A DNA stretch of 64,000 nucleotides, taken from Patescibacteria group bacterium (GTDB lineage Bacteria; Patescibacteriota; Patescibacteriia; JAXHNJ01). The position numbers were made by a program, and so were the translations under genes. This document shows positions 3,164 to 10,500 of the stretch, piece after piece. The stretch spans positions 608,660 to 672,659 of the forward strand of contig JAXHNJ010000002.1 in the NCBI GenBank assembly GCA_034520665.1. Direction: 5' to 3'. The notes beneath the pieces were generated by a model. That model saw only the letters and a list, made by a program, of their open reading frames with translations. It searched no databases and was not told the DNA's origin. Every line of letters starts with the position of its first letter. Position 1 is the first letter of the stretch.

Positions 3164-3324
3164 AATTTTAGTCTACCAAAAAACCGCTCTTAAGGCGATT
3201 TTGTTATTAAGTTAAAATAAGTTAAGACTGAGGTCCCAAGAGTGCGGTTGTTTCCCTGCTAAAAATAATATTTCTAACAGGGTTTTAATCCCGTGACGAA
3301 GTAAACTAATTTGACGTGTCGCGC

Positions 3325-3924
3325 TTAGCGCGATAAGGGTTCTTTGGGTTCAGTATGAATAATCTTATCTTTTTTTGACTTTTTTTTAAGAATTATGATC
3401 AATAATATTATTCCGGCTATTAATACTACTGCGATTGCTATTGTTAAGTATAAATTGCTAATAAGATAATAAGAATAATAATTATATAATAACTTATTTC
3501 CTTTCTTTATCTCGCCCAGTTGATTGCTCTCAAAAACGTTTGAGGTATATATGTCACCAACTGATAGCACGTTTTCATCTTCAGGTTCCCATATTTCATT
3601 ATGAAATTCATAATTTTTACCAATTTCTAAATTATTACATAACTCTCTTGATAGTTCGTTATTATAATTTTTTTTATCAATGAGCTTTGTGTCAAATTGC
3701 ATTAAATATTCGGCACCACCCAGAGGAACATAACCGTTATCTCCGCAAAAACCCTCGGGGTCCCAATCAAATGTTTTCTCGCACCAGTTGTATTTTTCCA
3801 CTTTTATTACTTCGCCCACTATCAAACAAGAATCCTCGTGTCTATAAGCAACACTTGATTCGGCAATGTTATATGAAAAAAGAAATATACAAACTGATAA
3901 TATAATAATTTTTGTGTATCTCAT
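3325..3924 (-). CDS. secreted protein with signal peptide and C-terminal TM anchor
   Basis: N-terminal MRYTKIIILSVCIFLFSYNIAES, C-terminal hydrophobic helix followed by KKKSKKDK. Confidence 0.45.
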   Translation of the reverse strand: MRYTKIIILSVCIFLFSYNIAESSVAYRHEDSCLIVGEVIKVEKYNWCEKTFDWDPEGFCGDNGYVPLGGAEYLMQFDTKLIDKKNYNNELSRELCNNLEIGKNYEFHNEIWEPEDENVLSVGDIYTSNVFESNQLGEIKKGNKLLYNYYSYYLISNLYLTIAIAVVLIAGIILLIIILKKKSKKDKIIHTEPKEPLSR

Positions 3925-3994
3925 ATAATTATAATATCATAAAACTGCTCTTTTGTAAGGAAAGAGTTGTGGCCCCGTTATTCAACCGGGGTAA

Positions 3995-4120
3995 AGGGGT
4001 GGCTAGATCCGCCTTCGTCTTTCTGCTAGGCGACTTTGGCGAACAAGGTATTTTATTATTTTTTTATATTTAAGGTCAATAAAACTCGCCATTAAATGTA
4101 TTAAAAAAGACGCAAAGGGG
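3995..4120. repeat. direct repeat aaaggggtggctaga (3995-4010 and 4106-4120) within a GC-rich structured intergenic island
   Basis: Identical 15-mer twice, about 110 nt apart, in a GC-rich patch of an AT-rich genome; hairpins gccccgcggagcggggc and gccaaaggc-agatgc-gcctttggc nearby. Confidence 0.6.
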
Positions 4121-4215
4121 TGGCTAGAGGCCCCGCGGAGCGGGGCAAGGAATTTCAGCCAAAGGCAGATGCGCCTTTGGCGCAGAACCCTCGTCACCCC
4201 GCACCATGATTCATT
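4100..4215 (+). ncRNA. candidate small SRP RNA (4.5S-like) or other structured GC-rich RNA
   Basis: Segment GGAAUUUCAGCCAAAGGCAGAUG closely resembles the conserved domain-IV strand of bacterial 4.5S RNA (GGAAGCAGCCAAGGCAGAUG, from memory); flanking ggggtg...cacccc can close a long hairpin; ends not determinable by eye. Confidence 0.25.
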
Positions 4216-4320
4216 TCATTCATCAGCTTAAGAGATAAAGCTCCCTTGTCATAGTTCGGGGCAAGCTGGTGCCACTTTGGTTTGTTAAAGAAAAAGATTT
4301 TTAATTTTGAGAGATTCAGA

Positions 4321-4395
4321 GGGGTGACCTACGGGAATCGAACCCGTATCACTGGTGCCACAGACCAGTGCACTAACCGTTGTGCTAAGGTCACC
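4321..4395 (-). tRNA. tRNA-His (anticodon GTG) with G-1
   Basis: Reverse complement folds as G-1 + GTGACCT acceptor / TA / GCAC-AACGGTTA-GTGC D-arm / CTGGT-CTGTGGC-ACCAG anticodon arm (GTG) / TGAT / ACGGG-TTCGATT-CCCGT T-arm / AGGTCAC + C73 pairing G-1. Confidence 0.8.
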
Positions 4396-4511
4396 CCTCT
4401 GAATCACTTTATTATTATATATTTATAAAAAATATTATGATTATTTTTCAATCTTCTTTGGCAAGTAAGCCAATAACCACTGCTTGCCCTGAGCGGAGTC
4501 GAAGGGTGCTA

Positions 4512-4622
4512 TAGCCATTCCTTTGCGTCCTATATTTATATATTTTTTAAAGAATTTATTAAAATGATGCACCCCGCCCGACTCGCTTCGCTGTTTTGAA
4601 GCGGGCCATTCCTTTGCGTCCT
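4512..4622. repeat. direct repeat gccattcctttgcgtcct (4512-4530 and 4604-4622)
   Basis: Two identical 18-mers about 90 nt apart between tRNA-His and the downstream gene; adjacent motif caccccgcccgactcgc recurs at 5367-5386 (inverted) and 5270-5288. Confidence 0.6.
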
Positions 4623-4628
4623 GTTTTT

Positions 4629-5213
4629 TTAAATATTTGTTTTTCTTTCTTTATTTTTATAAATTTGCGAAATTTTTTTAGGAATTTCTTCTGGCAGATT
4701 ATTATGATCGGGATTATCTTTTTCATAAAGATTAGCTTCATATAAATCTTCGGCCAGGTTTCTCAAACCATACAAAACCGAAACCATGGCTTCGTTAAGA
4801 ATTTCCATACCTTCTTTATTTTCAACTTTAATATTAGCAGCGTCTTTTTCAATAGCTTCTGACTCTTCGGCTAGATTAATCAAAAAATTTTCAGTATTTT
4901 TTGCTTCCTCTTCTGGCAGAGTAGTTAAGTACGATCTTAATTTTTCAAATATCTGAGCAGTAATGTCTTTAAAAGTTTTACTTCTTTCAACTAATAATTT
5001 TTTATCTATAACTTCTTCAGTATTAAATTCTCTCTGGGCTATTCGGGAAATATCAGTATAGATTTTTATTAGTTCCTTAGCCTTGGGCTCCAATTTTTCA
5101 CTTTTTTCTTTAACAAAATTATAAAGCTCTTCATCTTTTTCATCAATTTTTTCCAGAGTATTTTCAACAGCTGATAATTGGTTTAAAAAATTTTCGGATG
5201 ATTTTTCTTTCAT
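4629..5213 (-). CDS. hypothetical acidic coiled-coil-like protein
   Basis: ORF-track frame 4629..5246; likely true start MKEKSSENF at 5213 because the upstream extension overlaps the tRNA fragment. Confidence 0.45.
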   Translation of the reverse strand: MKEKSSENFLNQLSAVENTLEKIDEKDEELYNFVKEKSEKLEPKAKELIKIYTDISRIAQREFNTEEVIDKKLLVERSKTFKDITAQIFEKLRSYLTTLPEEEAKNTENFLINLAEESEAIEKDAANIKVENKEGMEILNEAMVSVLYGLRNLAEDLYEANLYEKDNPDHNNLPEEIPKKISQIYKNKERKTNI

Positions 5214-5231
5214 ATAATTATTATTATTTTC

Positions 5232-5291
5232 TGGTGCCCCAGGCACGATTCGAACGTGCGACCTACTGCTTACCCGCCCGCCTGACTCGTC
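5232..5291 (-). other. tRNA 3'-half fragment (variable loop, T-arm, acceptor 3' strand and encoded CCA) with no contiguous 5' half
   Basis: Reverse complement ...AGGTC GCACG TTCGAAT CGTGC CTGGGGC A CCA; the matching 5' strand GCCCCTG TA GTTC AACGGATAGAC lies about 180 nt away at 5471-5500. Confidence 0.5.
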
Positions 5292-5366
5292 TGGTGTCCC
5301 CAGTAGGAATCGAACCTACATCTAGGGCTTAGAAGGCCCTCGTTCTATCCATTGAACTATAGGGAC
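5292..5366 (-). tRNA. tRNA-Arg (anticodon TCT)
   Basis: RC = GTCCCTA TA GTTC AATGGATA GAAC G AGGGC CTTCTAA GCCCT AGATG TAGG TTCGATT CCTA CTGGGGAC A CCA; canonical cloverleaf, anticodon UCU. Confidence 0.85.
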
Positions 5367-5470
5367 GTCAGGCGAGTCGGGCGGGGAAGGCCGCTGTCCC
5401 GCCTGCCTTCGCCTTTGGCGACCAGCCCGACTTCGTATCGACGAAGTCGATGCGGGCGGGAGCCAATGGC

Positions 5471-5568
5471 GGGCAGGTCTATCCGTTGAACTACAGGGGC
5501 GTAGGTAATGGCGGAATATCGATTGCTTGTCCGCCGTAGCTTTAGGCGAAGACGGAAACTACAGGGAC
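5471..5568 (-). repeat. tRNA 5'-end-like fragments (5471-5500 GCCCCTGTAGTTCAACGGATAGAC; 5557-5568 GTCCCTGTAGTT)
   Basis: Two partial copies of the 5' acceptor/D-arm region resembling tRNA-Arg, separated by GC-rich hairpins (cgacttcgt-atcg-acgaagtcg; tcgcc-ttt-ggcga). Confidence 0.5.
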
Positions 5569-5607
5569 AAAAGTATAAATAAATCTAACATAAAAATTTG
5601 CTCTTTG

Positions 5608-6306
5608 TCAATGCTGACGAAATGATTCCGGGGTAATATTTTTGTTTATATTAGCCTTTTTTGTGTAGCGCTCGACCATTCTTTGAATGGAGCGGGCAGT
5701 TAAAGGGGGCAAGTCTTTTTTGGCGGCATGGTCATGACGAACAAATAAATATTTAGAATCATCTTTTCTTTTATCCAGATAATTTTTTAGAGCAAAAAGA
5801 GCTTGATTAGATAAATGAATTTTTTTATAAGCAAAATCATTTCTGGTCAAATTAGAAATTTCTGAAACTTTTAAATTAGTTGAGAGTAAAACTTCTAAAA
5901 GAGCCAGGTCGCGATATTTTATAATTAAGTGAGAGGACGTTTTTTTAACGGCTGAAAAGATTTGGTTGATTTCATTTTTTTCTAACAGCGGCTGATAGCT
6001 GGTTTGGTGTTTGAACAATTTTATTTCTTTATAATTAAGACTTTTAATATTATTTTTTTCTAAAAATTTTAAGAAATTACGCAGAGTGATTAAATAGTAA
6101 TTTTGCGTGTTTGTTAAATAGTTATTTTTTTCATGAGCTAAAAAGCCTTGGAACTTTCTTATAATAAGACGGTTTATTTCTTTGGGTCTTTTTACTTTGG
6201 TAATTTCTAGGAATTTTTCCAAACGTTGTTTATATTGATTAATAGTAGCGGAATAAATTCCTTTTTCTTTTAAATAATTTATGTATTGGTTAATATATTT
6301 ATCCAT
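5608..6306 (-). pseudogene. tyrosine recombinase (XerC/XerD/phage-integrase family), C-terminally truncated before the catalytic Tyr
   Basis: N-terminal SAM-like domain plus catalytic-domain motifs (RDLALLEVLLSTNLKVSEIS, LTARSIQRMV, ITPESFRQH = HxxR box), but the ORF stops right after the H of the LRH box; the expected ~35 residues carrying the catalytic tyrosine are absent. Confidence 0.6.
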
Positions 6307-6500
6307 ATTATATATTTTACGACACTTTTTTGTTTTAAGCAAAGCTAAATTAGTGAAGTAATTTTTATTGACAAAAAAAGCTTAATATGTTAGTTTTAAT
6401 TTACTAATTTTTATTAATAATTAAGTGCGTGTTCTTGGCTAAGGCCTGAAAATTAAATGGCCAAAGACCTTTGACTCGGAACGCGTGGAGAAAATGACTT

Positions 6501-6770
6501 ATGCCATTAAGCAAAACTAAAAAAGACCGGATTATTAAAAAATTTGCTACTCATAAAGATGACACCGGTTCATCGGAAGTGCAAATTGCTATTTTAACTG
6601 AAGAAATTAAAGAATTAACCCAGCATTTGCGTACTCATAAAAAAGATTTTTCCTCTCGCCGGGGGTTGCTCCGTAAAGTCGGACTGCGTCGCCGGCTTTT
6701 AAAGTATCTCAAAAAAGAGGATTCTAAAAGTTATGAGAGTTTAATTAAGAAACTTGGTTTGAAGAAGTAA
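6501..6770 (+). CDS. rpsO: 30S ribosomal protein S15
   Basis: 89 aa; [50 protein letters not shown] matches the S15 signature. Confidence 0.95.
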
Positions 6771-6897
6771 GTTTTTAAGATTTTATAAACTAATTGCTTT
6801 TGAAAAATCGTTGATTGGCAGAGGCTCTTGATTAATTAAGTATTTTATAATAACGTTTCAATGATTTTTACGAGCGAAAGCGATAGAACAAAAATAT

Positions 6898-7434
6898 ATG
6901 GAAAATATTGATCAGCGTGTTGGTTTGTTTGTTGATGTTTCTAACATGTACCATTCAGCCAAACACTTATATAAAAGTAAAGTTAATTTCGGGCGCATAT
7001 TAAAAGAGGCCGTTGGCCGGCGCAAATTAATCCGGGCTATTGCTTATGTTATTAAAGCTAAAAGTTTAGATGAAGAAAATTTTTTTGAGGCTTTGGCTAA
7101 ACAGGGCTTTGAAATAAAAGCTAAGGACTTGCAGATTTTTTTTGGCGGTCAGAAAAAAGGCGACTGGGATATTGGTCTGACTATTGATACTATTATTTTG
7201 GCTGATAAATTAGACACAGTAGTTTTAGTCACTGGTGACGGTGATTTTGCTGATCTAGTTAAATATTTAAAAATTAACAAGGGTTGTTTTGTTGAAATTA
7301 TGGCTTTTGGCGAATCCTGCTCTTCTAAACTCAAAGAAGAAGCCGATCGTTTTATTGATTTGTCAAAAGATAAAAGAAAATTTCTTTTATCAAACCGCTC
7401 AAGATCAAAAATAAAAAAAAGAAGGAGAAAATAA
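6898..7434 (+). CDS. NYN-domain (LabA-like) protein
   Basis: VGLFVDVSNMYHS ... VLVTGDGDFADLV motifs typical of NYN/LabA-like PIN-fold nucleases. Confidence 0.7.
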   Translation: MENIDQRVGLFVDVSNMYHSAKHLYKSKVNFGRILKEAVGRRKLIRAIAYVIKAKSLDEENFFEALAKQGFEIKAKDLQIFFGGQKKGDWDIGLTIDTIILADKLDTVVLVTGDGDFADLVKYLKINKGCFVEIMAFGESCSSKLKEEADRFIDLSKDKRKFLLSNRSRSKIKKRRRK

Positions 7435-7435
7435 T

Positions 7436-8140
7436 ATGGCCGAAAAAATGCCCGAGCTGGGCAAAGAAGTGCCTTTACCAGAGGAAAAAAACAATTTAAA
7501 TCAAATTGAAATGCGTACTGAAAATGGAGTCGAACGTTTTTCTTTCGCGGCTGGTTTAAAAAGTCAGATGGAAGAAGCGGAAAATTTACCACCTTTAGAA
7601 TTTCAGGAAAATGAAGTGGCTCAAGCCAAAGATAAAGAAATATTGAATTTTGTTATTAATGAAACCCTGAAAAAAATTAAAAACAACAGTGAAATTAGAA
7701 AATTAAGAAAAAAGGTAATAGAAGAAGAAAATATAAATGTTTTAACTAAAACTGAAAGAAAAAAGATGGTTGAAGCTTTTGATAAAGCTCGTAATCAGGC
7801 CTTTGAAGCGGCTCAGAAAAAATTTGACCAAAAACTTTCATCCGAACATTTAAGAAAAATAAAAAAAGCCACGGTTAGTCAGCTTAATTATTCTCTGCGC
7901 CAGAAAATTATTGATGGGGGTGAGCCCAAATCTTGGATGCTACTGGAGCCAAAATTAAGAAAAGTTCACCTGATGGACAGAAAAACTCTAACCCGTTATT
8001 TACGTAACTCACTTAATAAGTCGGCTGACGTTAAATTTATTAAGCAGCAAGAAGAAGCTAATCAGGCTACTGATGAAATGACCGAAGCGCTGGAAGAAGT
8101 AGCCCCGGACGAAGAACTAAAAAAGGCGGCTAAAAAATAA
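7436..8140 (+). CDS. hypothetical charged protein
   Basis: 234-aa K/E-rich ORF, start 2 nt after the NYN gene. Confidence 0.45.
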   Translation: MAEKMPELGKEVPLPEEKNNLNQIEMRTENGVERFSFAAGLKSQMEEAENLPPLEFQENEVAQAKDKEILNFVINETLKKIKNNSEIRKLRKKVIEEENINVLTKTERKKMVEAFDKARNQAFEAAQKKFDQKLSSEHLRKIKKATVSQLNYSLRQKIIDGGEPKSWMLLEPKLRKVHLMDRKTLTRYLRNSLNKSADVKFIKQQEEANQATDEMTEALEEVAPDEELKKAAKK

Positions 8141-8259
8141 TAATAGATAAATACTAATTAAAAACTAAAAAAATAATTAACAGCTGAAAAGCAGACAAGT
8201 AGACTACCAGGAAATACCTTTATATCTTTATTTTCCGTAGTCTAAAGCCTGCTGTTCAG

Positions 8260-10500
8260 TTGTCAAAACGAAAGGATTTTAAATTTATGTCTGTAAAAAG
8301 TTTTTCTACAGAAATTGCCGGTAAAAAATTAATTATCGAAACCGGAAAATTGGCTGATCAGGCCAATGGCTCCTGTACTGTACGCTACGGTGATACGGTG
8401 GTTTTAGCTACTGCTGTCATGAGCCAAACTATCCGCGAGGGTATTGATTACTTTCCTCTGATGGTTGATTACGAAGAGAAGTTATACGCGGCTGGTAAAA
8501 TTAAAGGCTCGCGCTTTATCAAACGCGAGGGCCGGCCTTCAGATGAGGCTATCTTAACCGCTCGTCTGGTAGACCGAGCTTTAAGGCCGTTTTTTGACGA
8601 AAAAATGAGAAATGATGTGCAAGTGGTTATTACAGTTTTATCCATTGATGATGAAAATGATCCGGACATTATTTCTTTGATTGCTGCTTCCTGTGCCGTT
8701 TATATGTCTAATATTCCTTGGCAGGGCCCGGTCGGGTGTTTAAGAGTCGGTCGTGTTAATGGTGAATGGGTGCTTAATCCTTCTAACGAAGCCCGTGAAA
8801 AATCAGAGTTTGACTTAGTCATGGCTGGTACTGGGGAGAAAGTAGCTATGATGGAGGCCGAAGCAGAAGAAACAGCCGAAGGAGTAATTTTAGAAGCCAT
8901 TGAATTTGGCCAGAAACACATGAAAAAAATTACTAAACTAATTGAAGAAGTAAGAAGTGAAGTGGGAGCTGAGAAAATTAAGGGTGATACTGAAGAAATA
9001 GATAAAGAAGAAAAAGAAGAAATAGAAAATTTAGAAAAAAAAGTTAAAGATTTTACCAAAGATAAATTAAAAGAATCATTAAATATAAAAGATAAACTTG
9101 AACGTGAAGAAGCGATTACCAAGATTAAAGACGAATTAAATATAAGTTTGAAAGAGGATAATGAAATCAGTAAGGAGAGGCGAGAAAGAGCGGCTATGAT
9201 TCTACAGGAAATGCTGGATAAAGAAGCCAAGCGTTTGATGTTAGAAGAAGAAGAAAGAGTAGACGGCCGAAAACTGGATGAAGTGCGGCCGGTCAGCTGC
9301 CAAGTGGGGCTTTTGCCGCGTACACACGGCTCGGGTCTTTTTAACCGCGGTGAAACTCAAGTGCTTTCTATAGTTACTTTGGGTTCTCCGGGAGATGAAC
9401 AATTAATTGACACTATGGAAGAGTCGGGTAAAAAACATTACATGCATCATTATAATTTTCCTGGCTTTTCTGTGGGAGAGGTTATTCCTATGCGCGGGCC
9501 AAAAAGAAGAGAAATTGGACACGGTGCTTTAGCTGAAAAAGCTGTCATGCCGCTTTTACCGGACAAAGAAGATTTTCCCTACACTATTCGTGTGGTTTCA
9601 GAAGTTTTATCCTCTAATGGCTCTTCTTCTCAGGCCTCGGTTTGCGGCTCTTCTCTGGCTCTGATGGATGCTGGCGTGCCTTTGAAAAAAGCTGTGGCTG
9701 GTATTGCTATGGGTATAATTATGGATGATCAGGAAAAAGAATATAAAATATTAACCGATATACAAGGTATTGAAGACCACTCGGGTGGTATGGACTTTAA
9801 AGTAGCCGGGACCAGAGACGGCATTACCGCTATTCAACTAGACGTAAAAATCAGCGGCTTAACTCTAGAAATTTGCCGGGAAACTCTGGAAAAAGCTAAA
9901 CAGGCTCGTTTGAAAATTTTAGAAACCATGAATAAGATAATACCCGAACCCAGAAAAGAACTTTCTGAGTATTCTCCGCGTATTGAAACCTTAAAAATCG
10001 ATCCGGAAAAAATAAGAGATGTAATAGGTCGGGGTGGTGAAACCATTAATGAAATCATTGAAGAGTGCGGCGGAAGAGATATTACCAAAATTGATATTGA
10101 GGATGATGGTTTAGTTTTGATAACCTCCAGTGACGCCAAAATGTCCGAAAAAGCCCTTGAATGGGTTAAACAAATAACTCGTGAAATAGAAGTGGGAGAA
10201 ATTTATGAAGGTGATGTTATTCAGATTATTAAAGACCGTAACAATCCCAATAAAGAAATTGGAGCCATTGTAGAAATTTTACCCGAAAAAGACGGTATGG
10301 TGCATATTTCAGAATTTTCTCACAAACACATTAACAAAGTCTCAGATTTAGTGGATGTGGGAGACCATATTAAAGTTAAAGTAATGGAAGTTGATAAAGA
10401 AAGAGGGCGTATTGGCTTATCAGTTAAAGCTTTAACTGAATCAAAAGATAAAAATTATCACCAGAAAAAACGTGATAAAAAAGATTTTAGAAAAAAGTAG
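8260..10500 (+). CDS. pnp: polynucleotide phosphorylase (PNPase)
   Basis: Two RNase PH-like domains, KH and S1 domains (…GEIYEGDVIQII…); classic rpsO-pnp neighbourhood; true start may be the internal M at 8287. Confidence 0.95.
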   Translation: MSKRKDFKFMSVKSFSTEIAGKKLIIETGKLADQANGSCTVRYGDTVVLATAVMSQTIREGIDYFPLMVDYEEKLYAAGKIKGSRFIKREGRPSDEAILTARLVDRALRPFFDEKMRNDVQVVITVLSIDDENDPDIISLIAASCAVYMSNIPWQGPVGCLRVGRVNGEWVLNPSNEAREKSEFDLVMAGTGEKVAMMEAEAEETAEGVILEAIEFGQKHMKKITKLIEEVRSEVGAEKIKGDTEEIDKEEKEEIENLEKKVKDFTKDKLKESLNIKDKLEREEAITKIKDELNISLKEDNEISKERRERAAMILQEMLDKEAKRLMLEEEERVDGRKLDEVRPVSCQVGLLPRTHGSGLFNRGETQVLSIVTLGSPGDEQLIDTMEESGKKHYMHHYNFPGFSVGEVIPMRGPKRREIGHGALAEKAVMPLLPDKEDFPYTIRVVSEVLSSNGSSSQASVCGSSLALMDAGVPLKKAVAGIAMGIIMDDQEKEYKILTDIQGIEDHSGGMDFKVAGTRDGITAIQLDVKISGLTLEICRETLEKAKQARLKILETMNKIIPEPRKELSEYSPRIETLKIDPEKIRDVIGRGGETINEIIEECGGRDITKIDIEDDGLVLITSSDAKMSEKALEWVKQITREIEVGEIYEGDVIQIIKDRNNPNKEIGAIVEILPEKDGMVHISEFSHKHINKVSDLVDVGDHIKVKVMEVDKERGRIGLSVKALTESKDKNYHQKKRDKKDFRKK

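Follow-up and report, generated by a model that had tools for sequence, protein, structure and literature searches.

How does one complete tRNA gene come to lie inside another? In the 64-kb stretch of DNA analysed here (the window), which belongs to a small metagenome-assembled Patescibacteria genome of 35% GC, a tRNA-Arg(UCU) gene on the minus strand is nested between the two halves of a second tRNA-like gene, next to a truncated tyrosine recombinase gene (Table 1). The initial annotation of this DNA had proposed that a tRNA was disrupted in its anticodon region by an insert carrying its own replacement tRNA, and it had offered an integrative-element scar, an unusual intron and a permuted or split tRNA as possible explanations. 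With moderate confidence, we regard the nested arrangement as a gene-replacement scar, in which a 113-bp unit would have been inserted into the resident tRNA-Arg(UCU) gene, probably in a manner like that of tRNA-dependent lysogeny, and we regard such replacement as recurrent in the lineage.

Table 1. Features of the nested tRNA-Arg locus on the minus strand (positions in the 64-kb window)
Feature	Positions	Strand	Details
Truncated Xer-like tyrosine recombinase ORF	5608..6306	-	232 aa from ATG; upstream TTG at 6342 possible; ends ...TPESFRQH*
Predicted locus promoter	5582..5611	-	TTGACA, 18 nt, TAGATT, with TG extension
Stub GTCCCTGTAGTT, first 12 positions of a tRNA-Arg similar to the inner gene	5557..5568	-	Sequence; same in L052 and L019
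Spacer, stub to relic	5501..5556	-	Imperfect inverted stub copy AAAGCTACGGCGGAC and leader CCGCCATTACCTAC; alignable with L052
Relic of old tRNA-Arg(UCU), positions 1-23 GCCCCTGTAGTTCAACGGATAGA	5478..5500	-	23/23 identical to L052 live tRNA-Arg(tct)
80-nt GC-rich palindrome in relic D-arm, at 23|24	5398..5477	-	Single long hairpin on folding
Relic of old tRNA-Arg(UCU), positions 24-35 ACAGCGGCCTTC, last base anticodon C35	5386..5397	-	12/12 identical to L052 live tRNA and L017 relic
Leader of inserted unit CCCGCCCGACTCGCCTGAC, complementary to trailer	5367..5385	-	Folding; homologous in L012
Intact tRNA-Arg(UCU), CCA encoded (live gene)	5292..5366	-	ARAGORN, Rfam
Trailer of inserted unit GACGAGTCAGGCGGGCGGG	5273..5291	-	Folding; same trailer in L052
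Relic of old tRNA-Arg(UCU), positions 36-76 TAAGCAGT...CTGGGGCACCA, first base anticodon U36, CCA end at 5232	5232..5272	-	39/41 identical to L053 live tRNA-Arg(tct)

All the elements of the initial annotation were recovered on the minus strand, and several of their boundaries were corrected. The 5' stub is present, and its junction TAGTT|TCCG is identical in the window, L052 and L019; the spacer that follows aligns with that of L052 except for a 30-nt indel. The 5' half had been placed at 5500-5471, but only its first 23 positions are tRNA, and the CCTGCCCGCC that follows them is the start of the 80-nt palindrome. Nor is this half a single piece, since the tRNA resumes at 5397-5386 (positions 24-35), a stretch that had been missed. 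What had been described as about 130 nt of GC-rich hairpins is actually the palindrome, followed by 12 nt of tRNA and then by a 19-nt leader. The 3' half is tRNA-derived from TAAGCAGT to its CCA end, but the preceding GGCGGGCGGG, which had been assigned to it, is part of the trailer of the inner tRNA. The proposed pairing of the two outer acceptor strands holds for six of the seven base pairs, with U6.U67 mismatched.

The inner gene proved to be complete, as had been claimed. ARAGORN identified it as tRNA-Arg(tct), and at 5366-5292 it scored 74 bits with Rfam RF00005, against a gathering score of 29. It is 98.7% identical to the tRNA of a similar locus, L017. Together with its 19-nt GC-rich inverted-repeat flanks, the complete tRNA-Arg(UCU) makes up a unit of 113 bp whose terminal inverted repeats read CCCGCCCG.../...CGGGCGGG. 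The flanks had been said to pair and enclose the tRNA in a stem, and the calculation agreed: their duplex energy is -29.9 kcal/mol, the strongest among 173 tRNAs tested (5th percentile of the control, -15.5 kcal/mol), and the 113-nt unit folded into a cloverleaf closed by the leader-trailer stem (z = -5.35). An enclosing stem as a general trait of tRNA genes was rejected, because only 7.5% of the 173 tRNAs from the fetched loci fell below the control 5th percentile. A strong stem was found at every intact tRNA of the three lineages that have the gene order in common, and also in L012, an unrelated contig in which a tRNA-Arg(GCG) has homologues of both the leader and the trailer. The inner and outer genes are distinct alleles, with three differences in the first 23 positions and unrelated T-arms.

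The outer pieces part exactly at 35|36, after the second base of the anticodon and before the third, and zero bases are lost or duplicated. The claim that a tRNA was disrupted in its anticodon region by an insert with its own replacement tRNA is upheld: both pieces are tRNA-Arg(UCU), and each is contained in an intact gene of a relative with the same gene order. In-silico removal of both inserts gave a complete 76-nt tRNA-Arg(tct) that ARAGORN accepted, with mismatches at U6.U67 and G29.A41. Comparison with the homologous loci provided intact counterparts of both pieces. Positions 1-35 are identical to the live gene of L052 (35/35), and 39 of the 41 bases of the 3' piece agree with the live gene of L053. 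These matches exceed chance: with blastn-short in a 1.2-kb region, the 3' piece matched the L053 tRNA with E = 1e-15, and the two 5' pieces matched the L052 tRNA with E = 1e-9 and 0.004. The outer 5' half is near-universal, and its matches in viral contigs are generic tRNA-Arg genes. The D-arm palindrome (5477-5398) ends in an inverted repeat, CCTGCCCGCC.../...GGCAGGCGGG, and folded into a hairpin of -45.5 kcal/mol (z = -4.85). Neither 23|24 nor 35|36 has a target-site duplication, and the two junctions of the insert share no base or direct repeat, the 5' piece ending in C35 and the 3' piece starting with U36.

As encoded, the outer gene escaped detection. Within 5200-5620, ARAGORN (with and without its intron mode) and Rfam reported the inner tRNA only; when the D-arm palindrome was retained in the outer gene, plain ARAGORN gave nothing and intron mode gave only a spurious 'tRNA-Glu'. 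Judged by its sequence, the outer 'tRNA' is the remains of a former tRNA-Arg(UCU) gene at this locus. With its D-arm palindrome, its two stem mismatches and a further decayed counterpart in L017, it looks dead.

The best promoter-like site in 3900-5700 is the TTGACA/TAGATT site, which matches at 10 of 12 positions and whose -35 box overlaps the TGA stop codon of the integrase gene. The promoter block CATTGACAAAG..TTATACTTTTG is nearly invariant among the window, L052 and L053. No further promoter was predicted between this site and the tRNA, nor inside the GC-rich block. The newcomer tRNA, having no predicted promoter of its own, would depend on the promoter of the old gene, which lies about 215 nt upstream, and its transcription would pass through the old 5' half. 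Within the resulting RNA, the tRNA would form the 'loop' of a 14-bp leader-trailer helix, and ordinary 5' and 3' end-processing would be expected to release it. The old halves would never be rejoined; they would persist as leader and trailer debris that is being colonised by GC-rich palindromes.

The locus was compared with its counterparts in other contigs. L017 has the same nesting, the same site for the D-arm palindrome, the junctions CTTC|CCCCGC and GGCGGGA|TAAGCC, and the same combination of 5' and 3' types in its outer gene, while its neighbouring genes differ from those of the window and its GC content is higher. Positions 1-23 of its relic differ from the window at one base. Its D-arm insert is 41 nt long, and the window copy consists of this 41-nt version with a palindrome nested within it. 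The outer acceptor strands of L017 pair at 7/7 positions, both partners of the C5-G68 pair of the window being changed to give U5-A68. In the 3' half of its outer gene, which is degenerate, there is another insert, and the T-arm is destroyed; the outer gene is therefore dispensable there.

L052 displays the opposite nesting: the relic type of the window is intact, with a 5' stub of the window's live type on one side and, on the other, a 3' fragment-plus-trailer of that live type, in which the trailer GACGAGTTAGGCAGG comes after the 3' fragment. In L053, the gene of the outer 3' type is intact, and a 3' fragment of the other type comes after it; L053 also has a T-arm insert. Synonymous sites between the genomes of the window, L052 and L053 are saturated (dS 1.3-2.6). 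A homologue search with the downstream 194-aa ORF returned the same three lineages only and gave no denser sampling of the locus.

A comparable pattern was observed at the tRNA-His locus 1 kb away, where an intact tRNA, equipped with a leader and trailer of its own, is flanked by 5' and 3' pieces of a His allele, namely the one found intact in L052. In L052 itself, the leader of tRNA-His (GACGCAAAGG) pairs with its trailer (CCTTGCGTC), after which comes a T-run, and the whole tRNA sits inside a terminator-like stem. Among 45 metagenomic tRNA-Arg loci, about 12 contain fragments at most 300 nt from the gene, 5' pieces upstream and 3' pieces downstream, beside GC-rich hairpins. Across genomes the palindromes have common end motifs (CCYGCC / GGCRGG) and a CGCC-NAAG-GCG hairpin. 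In the 64 kb they occur at the two tRNA loci only, although a further 16 intergenic gaps measure 150 nt or more, and a genome-wide MITE was rejected for the window on account of this confinement. The reciprocal nesting, the tRNA-His pattern and the fragments, present at about one in four of the tRNA-Arg loci sampled, suggest that a process linked to GC-rich palindromes is still under way across the lineage.

The adjacent integrase had been noted as C-terminally truncated, and this description stands: the protein contains a Pfam SAM-like N-terminal domain and Phage_integrase profile positions 3-134 of 172, lacks positions 135-172, a region that includes the catalytic Tyr, and can be aligned with residues 6-262 of a 318-aa Xer relative. 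The translations show Lys (NLKVSE) in place of the first catalytic Arg. The gene is not a recent casualty of the insertion. Orthologues in L052 and L053 have 232-240 aa, against about 300-320 aa in distant homologues, and a recent pseudogene was rejected by the dN/dS of 0.11-0.24 among the truncated orthologues of the three lineages. As estimated from these ratios, the truncated integrase is conserved under purifying selection in all three. Splitting of the integrase by SSV-type integration was rejected as well, as tblastn with the C-terminal 60 residues of a full-length Xer gave no match in the 64 kb. Truncated, without the region of the catalytic Tyr and with Lys for the first Arg, the predicted protein cannot have been the agent of the insertion.

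In the history that we favour, a 113-bp DNA carrying a complete tRNA-Arg(UCU) would have entered the resident gene between bases 35 and 36 of its anticodon. Its likeliest source would be site-specific insertion as in tRNA-dependent lysogeny, in which the element leaves its target unrepaired and brings a tRNA of its own; the remainder of this element would have been deleted later, or the insert would have been a small non-autonomous derivative from the outset. Over recurrent rounds, each new tRNA copy would land inside the old one and take over its expression signals, so that fragments would be left in layers, those of 5' ends upstream and those of 3' ends downstream.

Experiments have demonstrated phages that disrupt a tRNA of their host and provide one themselves (Guerrero-Bustamante & Hatfull 2024, mBio; PMC10865867). 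In those systems, the host tRNA is disrupted, commonly in the anticodon loop, and is not rebuilt, and the incoming complete tRNA of the same isotype is then indispensable. The window agrees in that the outer gene is split and not rebuilt and the insert holds a complete tRNA-Arg(UCU). It differs in that the halves are only 113 bp apart, with no prophage, active integrase, arm sites or repeated core between them or at the junctions; in that the insert is bounded by its own inverted repeat; and in its host, a member of the Patescibacteria for which no such element has been identified. Four Bacteroidota viral contigs (L059, L060, L063 and L064) look like further examples of tRNA-dependent lysogeny, as their analysis gave a host promoter, positions 1-38 of the host tRNA-Arg(CCT) ending in the anticodon loop, about 100 nt, an intact tRNA-Arg(CCT) of another allele and an integrase gene; the host 3' half of the far junction was not found in the sequence searched. 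Scans of viral contigs for the 3' end of the inner tRNA and for the outer 3' half gave zero matches. Among genome contigs, a search with the outer T-arm and acceptor returned only an odd 93-nt tRNA in tRNA arrays of gammaproteobacterial MAGs, which are not relatives.

The fragments were also compared with the scars of classical tRNA-targeting islands and prophages, in which the displaced tRNA fragment is an att scar according to passages of PMC9897764 and PMC4383910 that cite Reiter 1989, Williams 2002 and the Islander database. Like these islands, the window has tRNA fragments beside an intact tRNA and a tyrosine-recombinase gene. Integrase crossovers reportedly fall at three sublocations, namely the anticodon loop, the T-loop and the 3' end (a scheme credited to Williams in 2002), and the breakpoints here lie at such sublocations: the anticodon loop in the window, and the T-loop, with GATTCC... 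fragments, in L052, L053, L016, L033 and L043. In a classical island, the element carries only the 3' part, a hybrid tRNA is rebuilt and the direct-repeat piece lies kilobases away. In contrast, the window contains a whole nested gene, a 5' fragment that was left as well, no direct repeat and distances of tens of nucleotides, and its nearby integrase is truncated and without key catalytic residues. The integrative-element scar of the initial annotation fits as a scar of insertion or integration, but the textbook direct repeat at both junctions is absent.

Several points weigh against the integration history. Neither junction has a common core, unlike the products of tyrosine integrases. After an integration, two separate deletions, both ending exactly at a junction, would have been needed, the insert being only 113 bp and bounded by its own inverted repeat. 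The saturated dS predicts about 38% identity for old junk, whereas 35/35 and 39/41 were observed; the relic is therefore young, imported or constrained. Descent of the relic from a single gene would call for an extra assumption, as its 5' half resembles the L052 gene and its 3' half the L053 gene, although the outer gene of L017 combines the two types in the same way.

We entertain an alternative tentatively, as unlikely: the 113-bp unit may itself be a miniature mobile element, a tRNA between GC-rich terminal inverted repeats, belonging to the palindrome family seen at 23|24 and 62|63, which homes to the cognate anticodon loop and kills and replaces the resident gene. The clean insertion at 35|36 and the resemblance of the insert ends to those of the D-arm palindrome and of the L053 T-arm insert agree with this idea. 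So do the same junction position and sequences in L017 amid different neighbours and a higher GC content, although this insert is present in two genomes only and possibly by common descent. The reciprocal nesting of two tRNA types at one locus in the window and L052, the pristine relics, which suggest recent events, and the restriction of the palindromes to two tRNA loci point the same way. The leader and trailer accompany this tRNA type in the unrelated L012, but there they flank a tRNA outside any relic, and the inverted repeat may be part of the pre-tRNA. The idea is weakened further by the lack of a linked transposase or active recombinase, of any observed empty-site/filled-site polymorphism, of a target-site duplication and of a common target motif among the palindrome insertion sites.

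Short GC-rich palindromes inserted into AT-rich genomes include the Rickettsia palindromic elements, yeast mitochondrial GC clusters and REP/BIME. The palindromes described here resemble them in being short and GC-rich in a 35% GC genome and in inserting into genes and into each other; they differ in being confined to tRNA loci, and one of them carries a whole tRNA gene. Of the features of MITE and REP elements, terminal inverted repeats are present, while target-site duplication and many dispersed copies are absent in the 64 kb. We know of no transposase associated with these palindromes. If the unit is mobile, which we consider unlikely, Patescibacteria would harbour an undescribed miniature selfish element, composed of a tRNA gene and GC-rich terminal inverted repeats, that inserts site-specifically into the anticodon loop of the cognate resident gene, disables it, takes over the promoter and becomes essential; cargo-less palindromes would colonise the dead copies, and rival alleles would replace each other repeatedly at one locus, as is suggested by the reciprocal nesting in the window and L052. 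Such an element would be a minimal 'addictive' one, with little beyond a tRNA gene.

A further proposal, compatible with the replacement scar, is co-option of the relic: a 'shell' for expression and processing, under selection, would consist of the old promoter, leader, acceptor strands, trailer and terminator. We consider this improbable. Its support lies in the promoter and stub region, conserved in three lineages despite dS above 1.3, and in the tRNA-His locus, where the window and L052 have about 85% identity over the promoter and leader of the relic and the hairpin next to them, and where the His trailer and T-run of the L052 terminator-like stem survive downstream of the nested tRNA-His of the window. 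Unlike the promoters and leaders, the parts of the relic that derive from the tRNA body have no evident role, and the outer 3' half has decayed in L017.

The locus might also have arisen without mobile DNA, through local tRNA duplication followed by break repair, template switching and deletions in fragile, heavily transcribed tRNA genes, the palindromes being by-products of fold-back repair. Pseudo-tRNA-Arg genes with hairpin inserts do lie upstream of an intact tRNA-Arg in L026, L045 and L007, and small hairpin inserts occur between direct repeats of 10, 17, 19 and 58 nt, some of them of genome-specific upstream sequence (L019, L021, L033). Inverted copies of the adjacent tRNA piece were found in the spacers (AAAGCTACGGCGGAC near the stub in the window; GTCCCTAG...CTAGGGA in L017), and the upstream copies at the tRNA-His locus carry promoter, leader and 5' end duplicated together. 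Deletions in a tandem array, however, cannot put a 3' half downstream of a different complete gene; the exact complementarity at 35|36 needs two independent breakpoints at one nucleotide; and the inner and outer genes are different alleles rather than recent duplicates. We regard this route as more doubtful still.

It is very unlikely that the outer gene is functional, as an intron-containing or split gene whose hairpins are cut at their bases and whose exons are ligated into a second tRNA-Arg(UCU). Its exons do sum exactly to a 76-nt tRNA that ARAGORN accepts, the base of each insert hairpin abuts an exon junction, both halves are unusually well preserved, and the L017 acceptor strands pair fully, with a double change at one pair. 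Bacterial group I introns interrupt the anticodon loops of tRNA-Leu(UAA), tRNA-fMet, tRNA-Arg(CCU) and tRNA-Ile and possess a conserved P3-P8 catalytic core (Rfam RF00028) in about 200 nt or more. The insertion likewise lies inside the anticodon loop, but its flanking exons sum to a complete tRNA only after the second, 80-nt insert is taken out too, and this tRNA has the U6.U67 and G29.A41 mismatches. It differs in comprising 113 nt, 75 of which are tRNA, and in an outer gene with an extra D-arm insert and mismatches. A group I intron or other ribozyme was rejected, as an Rfam search of 3900-5700 with E up to 10 returned only two tRNAs and noise; scans of six related loci at the gathering threshold gave tRNAs only.

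Archaeal intron-containing, split and permuted tRNAs depend on splicing at a bulge-helix-bulge (BHB), and the split tRNAs of Nanoarchaeum have GC-rich complementary flanks. The window is similar in that GC-rich complementary sequences bring the two halves into proximity and inserts occupy non-canonical positions (D-arm, anticodon, T-arm); it differs in being bacterial, without a BHB, with halves that are not co-adapted and with no evident need for a second product, the nested gene having the same anticodon. A BHB intron was rejected by inspection, because the two junctions lie opposite one another on a symmetric CUUC/UAA internal loop from which an 8-bp helix rises, and staggered 3-nt bulges are absent. 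To our knowledge, no tRNA splicing endonuclease has been described in bacteria. The product would bear two stem mismatches, the T-arm of the L017 outer gene is destroyed, and no complete tRNA can be made from the comparable His and L052 relics, which are truncated. The unusual intron is therefore set aside, having neither a group I core nor BHB geometry, and so is the permuted or split tRNA, given the second, 80-nt insert in the D-arm, the stem mismatches and the decay in L017. A tmRNA, which combines a tRNA-like domain of Ala identity with a tag reading frame, was also rejected, two-piece forms included, since ARAGORN found none and the acceptor stem lacks G3.U70.

An assembly artefact, in which strain variants were mis-joined at one tRNA locus of a metagenome-assembled genome through k-mers common to tRNA alleles, is hardly credible, since Logan contig L001 (which may come from the same sample) matches the whole locus with 100% identity, other samples gave analogous architectures when assembled independently (L017, L052; L053-L056 from several runs), and the junctions lie away from shared k-mers.

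A literature search yielded no account of nested tRNAs or of palindromes associated with tRNAs in CPR/Patescibacteria. Fragments of this kind are easily called pseudo, split or intron-bearing tRNAs and are thus a trap for annotation, the live gene being the nested one. If the Bacteroidota contigs are true examples, the reach of tRNA-dependent integration would extend beyond actinophages. Read as a gene-replacement scar, the locus would offer a base-by-base view of how an essential single-copy tRNA gene is swapped in a streamlined genome, with the old halves as a dated record of the exchange.

The initial annotation described an intact tRNA-Arg(UCU) nested between the halves of another tRNA gene and framed by GC-rich palindromes, and we found all of these elements on the minus strand (see table). 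The 5' half was present as described, but it does not end at the palindrome and instead resumes on the far side as a 12-nt piece. The leader of the nested gene is complementary to its trailer (duplex -29.9 kcal/mol, the top of 173 tRNAs compared), and the 113-nt unit comprising leader, tRNA and trailer folds into a cloverleaf closed by the leader-trailer helix (z = -5.35). An ORF of 194 aa has its start codon 19 nt beyond the 41-nt 3' piece. A hairpin upstream of a nearby tRNA-His and the leader of the nested tRNA-Arg share a perfect inverted match of 15 nt (GCGAGTCGGGCGGGG/CCCCGCCCGACTCGC; window 4572-4586 and 5372-5386); from their sequences, the two copies would be complementary if on one transcript strand, and a related motif, GAGTC..GGGCGGG, is present in the tRNA-Arg trailer too.

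Positions of the features at the tRNA-Arg and tRNA-His loci and of comparable features on other contigs
Feature	Contig	Position	Strand	Remarks
Xer-like recombinase ORF	window	6306-5608	minus	C-terminal end ...TPESFRQH*
Recombinase ORF	L052	1013-1711		
Recombinase ORF	L053	5843-6565		
Strong promoter-like site	window	5611-5582	minus	TTGACA-18 nt-TAGATT; recombinase ORF stop codon within -35 box
tRNA 5' stub	window	5568-5557	minus	12 nt, GTCCCTGTAGTT
Spacer	window	5556-5501	minus	56 nt
tRNA 5' sequence	window	5500-5478	minus	23 nt
GC-rich palindrome	window	5477-5398	minus	80 nt; folding -45.5 kcal/mol, z = -4.85
tRNA piece	window	5397-5386	minus	12 nt, ACAGCGGCCTTC
Leader	window	5385-5367	minus	19 nt
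Intact tRNA-Arg(UCU)	window	5366-5292	minus	including CCA; ARAGORN; Rfam 74 bits vs 29
Trailer	window	5291-5273	minus	19 nt
tRNA piece	window	5272-5232	minus	41 nt, TAAGCAGT...CTGGGGCACCA
tRNA-His locus	window	3990-4640	minus	
tRNA-His locus	L052	2760-3240		
tRNA-His locus	L053	7790-8020		
Upstream His 5' pieces	window	4622-4611, 4531-4506, 4482-4474	minus	
Intact tRNA-His	window	4394-4321	minus	own leader and trailer (TTCAGAGG/CCTCTGAA)
Downstream His T-arm/acceptor pieces with trailer	window	4195-4185, 4130-4103, 4007-3995	minus	
Bacteroidota tRNA-Arg(CCT) arrangement	L059	about 10150-10380		
Bacteroidota tRNA-Arg(CCT) arrangement	L060	about 3180-3400		
Bacteroidota tRNA-Arg(CCT) arrangement	L063	10590-10900		
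Bacteroidota tRNA-Arg(CCT) arrangement	L064	about 7260-7460		
Odd 'tRNA-Ile(tat)'	L002	7191-7283		
Odd 'tRNA-Ile(tat)'	L003	4541-4636		
Odd 'tRNA-Ile(tat)'	L004	4994-5086		

The window is AT-rich (35% GC), and the genes adjoining the locus are rpsO, a NYN-domain gene, pnp and cmk. One NCBI contig of 698 kb, labelled Patescibacteria group bacterium, matched the recombinase at 100%, and two more orthologues (76% and 59% identity) lie on L052 and L053-L056, contigs of relatives with the same gene order as the window. In all three lineages (window, L052 and L053), the tRNA locus adjoins a conserved cluster of rpsO, the NYN-domain protein (with a fold predicted to be that of an RNase), a 234-aa ORF and pnp (window 6501-10500, plus strand). 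Comparison with these relatives showed that L053 carries one intact tRNA-Arg(tct), immediately after the conserved promoter, which from anticodon base 36 through CCA matches the 41-nt piece at 39/41 positions, and that the first 35 nt of the intact tRNA-Arg(tct) of L052, which is of another type, match the 23-nt and 12-nt pieces at 35/35, indicating that both window pieces are tRNA-Arg(UCU) sequence. C35 is the last base of the 5' piece and U36 the first of the 3' piece. In silico removal of both the 80-nt palindrome and the 113-nt unit yielded a 76-nt tRNA-Arg(tct) that was accepted by ARAGORN, with mismatches U6.U67 and G29.A41.

As encoded, the outer gene was not detected by tRNA finders (ARAGORN, Rfam). 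It carries the 80-nt D-stem insert on top of the anticodon insert, has two stem mismatches and is probably dead. An intron-containing or split tRNA is not supported: the locus had no Rfam match to a group I intron or ribozyme, and the facing junctions form a symmetric internal loop, not a bulge-helix-bulge; ARAGORN found no tmRNA. The metagenomic contig L017, in which the tRNA-Arg and the window's inner gene share 98.7% identity, showed the same nesting. Its 5' piece is that of the window with one difference, its D-arm palindrome is a 41-nt version at the identical site, and the junction sequences CTTC|CCCCGC and GGCGGGA|TAAGCC are common to both. Compared with the window, additional AT-rich DNA flanks its inner tRNA on both sides. 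Its outer 3' half is degenerate, with a second interruption between positions 62 and 63, and, judged from this contig, the outer gene can evidently decay harmlessly. The neighbouring genes of L017 differ, its GC content is higher and its relic segments are nearly identical, a likeness hinting that the block as a whole may have moved horizontally.

The sole good promoter at the locus is the site upstream of the stub, which is almost invariant in the three lineages, and no promoter-like sequence was found in the GC-rich block. We infer that transcription of the nested gene would start at the old gene's promoter and run through the relic, with ordinary end-processing releasing the tRNA.

The adjacent integrase had been noted as C-terminally truncated, which our analysis confirmed: its match to the Pfam profile spans positions 3-134 of 172, it aligns with residues 6-262 of a 318-aa relative, and the missing part was found nowhere in the 64-kb window. 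The Tyr region is absent, and Lys replaces the first catalytic Arg. The truncated protein has an identical FR-x-H* ending in the three lineages, with dN/dS of 0.11-0.24 and dS of 1.3-2.6. By these sequence features it is an old-established gene that very probably has no recombinase activity, and it looks like a domesticated DNA-binding remnant. Because it is truncated, carries the Arg-to-Lys change and is kept in three lineages, it is no debris of the insertion and cannot have catalysed it.

The tRNA-Arg locus appears to have been overwritten repeatedly. In L052 the roles are exchanged: the live gene there is of the window's relic type, and on either side of it lie remains of the type alive in the window, a 5' stub and a 3' fragment (ATTCCTACTGGGGACA plus trailer GACGAGTTAGGCAGG). 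Between the live gene and this fragment are four GC-rich repeats in tandem, each about 45 nt long (GCCTGCCCGCCAAAGTGAGCGAGAGCGAATGACGGCGGC; L052 1965-2120). In L053, a 3' fragment of the L052 type, split by a palindrome, comes after the live gene. We retrieved 45 metagenomic tRNA-Arg loci with the inner gene's 3' end as query, and about 12 of the 45 had tRNA-Arg pieces at most 300 nt away, with 5' pieces upstream and 3' pieces downstream, the latter usually starting with GATTCC directly after a GC-rich hairpin. Contig L019 (2640-2935, minus) carries stubs of tRNA-Arg and tRNA-Lys, and the direct repeats on either side of its GC-rich inserts are 17 nt long for tRNA-Arg and 10 nt for tRNA-Lys. 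Within the window, CCYGCCYG/CRGGCRGG palindromes occurred only at the two tRNA loci, despite 16 other intergenic gaps.

Small GC-hairpin inserts at tRNA ends in L019, L021, L033 and L016, which are unrelated contigs, lie between direct repeats that vary in length and take in the end of the tRNA (58 nt in L021; about 19 nt, GATTCC...ACA, in L033 and L016), and the hairpin motif CGCC-NAAG-GCG recurs in these contigs and in the window (5420-5410, 4182-4172). Three other contigs (L026, L045, L007) have a near-complete pseudo-tRNA-Arg(TCT) 100-260 nt upstream of an intact tRNA-Arg, in tandem and not nested; its 5' half is of the window relic's type, and hairpin inserts occur in the D-arm or T-arm. 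A 90-aa GIY-YIG nuclease ORF (Pfam E = 1.4e-16) lies just downstream of the tRNA-Arg relic/hairpin block in L053 (6852-7124; also L054), is absent there in the window and L052, and could be a free-standing homing-type nuclease with a role in the tRNA-gene turnover. Gammaproteobacterial MAG tRNA arrays (>20 genes) contain an odd 93-96-nt 'tRNA-Ile(tat)', possibly chimeric or insert-bearing; over its last 41 nt it shares about 95% identity with the window's outer 3' half, and a tRNA-Arg(tct) follows 1 nt after it.

A comparable 'shell' design was found at the tRNA-His locus, 1 kb from the tRNA-Arg locus, where the intact gene is enclosed by two relic sets of another His allele, the one that L052 carries intact. 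Upstream lie a promoter, the leader GACGCAAAGG and 5' pieces of this other allele in two copies, and downstream its T-arm and acceptor pieces with trailer and T-run; GC-rich hairpins interrupt all of the pieces. The relic promoter, leader and hairpin upstream are about 85% identical between the window and L052. In L052 (2937-3046), the same leader pairs with the trailer CCTTGCGTC, directly followed by a T-run, so that tRNA-His forms the 'loop' of an intrinsic-terminator-like stem; the His trailer and T-run persist downstream of the nested tRNA-His in the window (4134-4098, minus).

Since dS between the genomes is saturated, old junk would be expected to be about 38% identical, against the 35/35 and 39/41 matches of the relic pieces to the relatives' live genes. 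This is explained in part by the near-universal tRNA-Arg sequence of the outer 5' half and by promoters and leaders still being used; on the sequence comparison, the relics of the tRNA body itself have to be recent, imported or under constraint.

Insertion of a DNA segment bearing a tRNA best explains the clean break between positions 35 and 36; the segment would have entered the resident tRNA-Arg gene at this point. The closest documented analogue is tRNA-dependent lysogeny (PMC10865867), in which a phage integrates in a tRNA gene, frequently at the anticodon loop and through a core of as little as 3-10 bp, does not rebuild the gene and brings a tRNA of that isotype with it. In the window, likewise, the target tRNA was not rebuilt and the incoming tRNA is of the same isotype. 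By analogy, the locus could be an event of this type reduced to one gene that the host can no longer lose, the element having been pared down to a now indispensable tRNA gene. A textbook integrase origin is disfavoured by the lack of a repeated core at the window junctions, by the tiny size of the insert and by the insert's own terminal inverted repeat, which lies directly against both junctions. The same three features also keep open another reading, in our view an unlikely one, in which the 113-bp unit would itself be a small mobile cassette, kin of the cargo-less palindromes. Deletions in a tandem array were rejected as the source of the break, because the old 3' half cannot end up behind a different complete gene. 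An arrangement that looks like tRNA-dependent integration outside actinophages was found in Bacteroidota viral contigs, where a host-type promoter and positions 1-38 of a host tRNA-Arg(CCT), broken right after the anticodon loop, are followed by about 100 nt, a second tRNA-Arg(CCT), which is intact and of another allele, and a 447-aa tyrosine integrase; the far junction was not found within the viral contig sequence examined.

The finding is real and not an artefact. Independent assemblies show similar architecture. The locus is best read as a gene-replacement scar, with a live tRNA lying exactly within its predecessor's anticodon, and not as an intron-containing or split tRNA. Our literature search (nested tRNAs, CPR/Patescibacteria tRNA-associated palindromes) found no description of lineage-wide tRNA-gene turnover with GC-rich palindromes, the pattern to which this locus belongs. 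The kind of event is known, a tRNA-targeted insertion bringing its own tRNA, and the locus represents a new variant of it.
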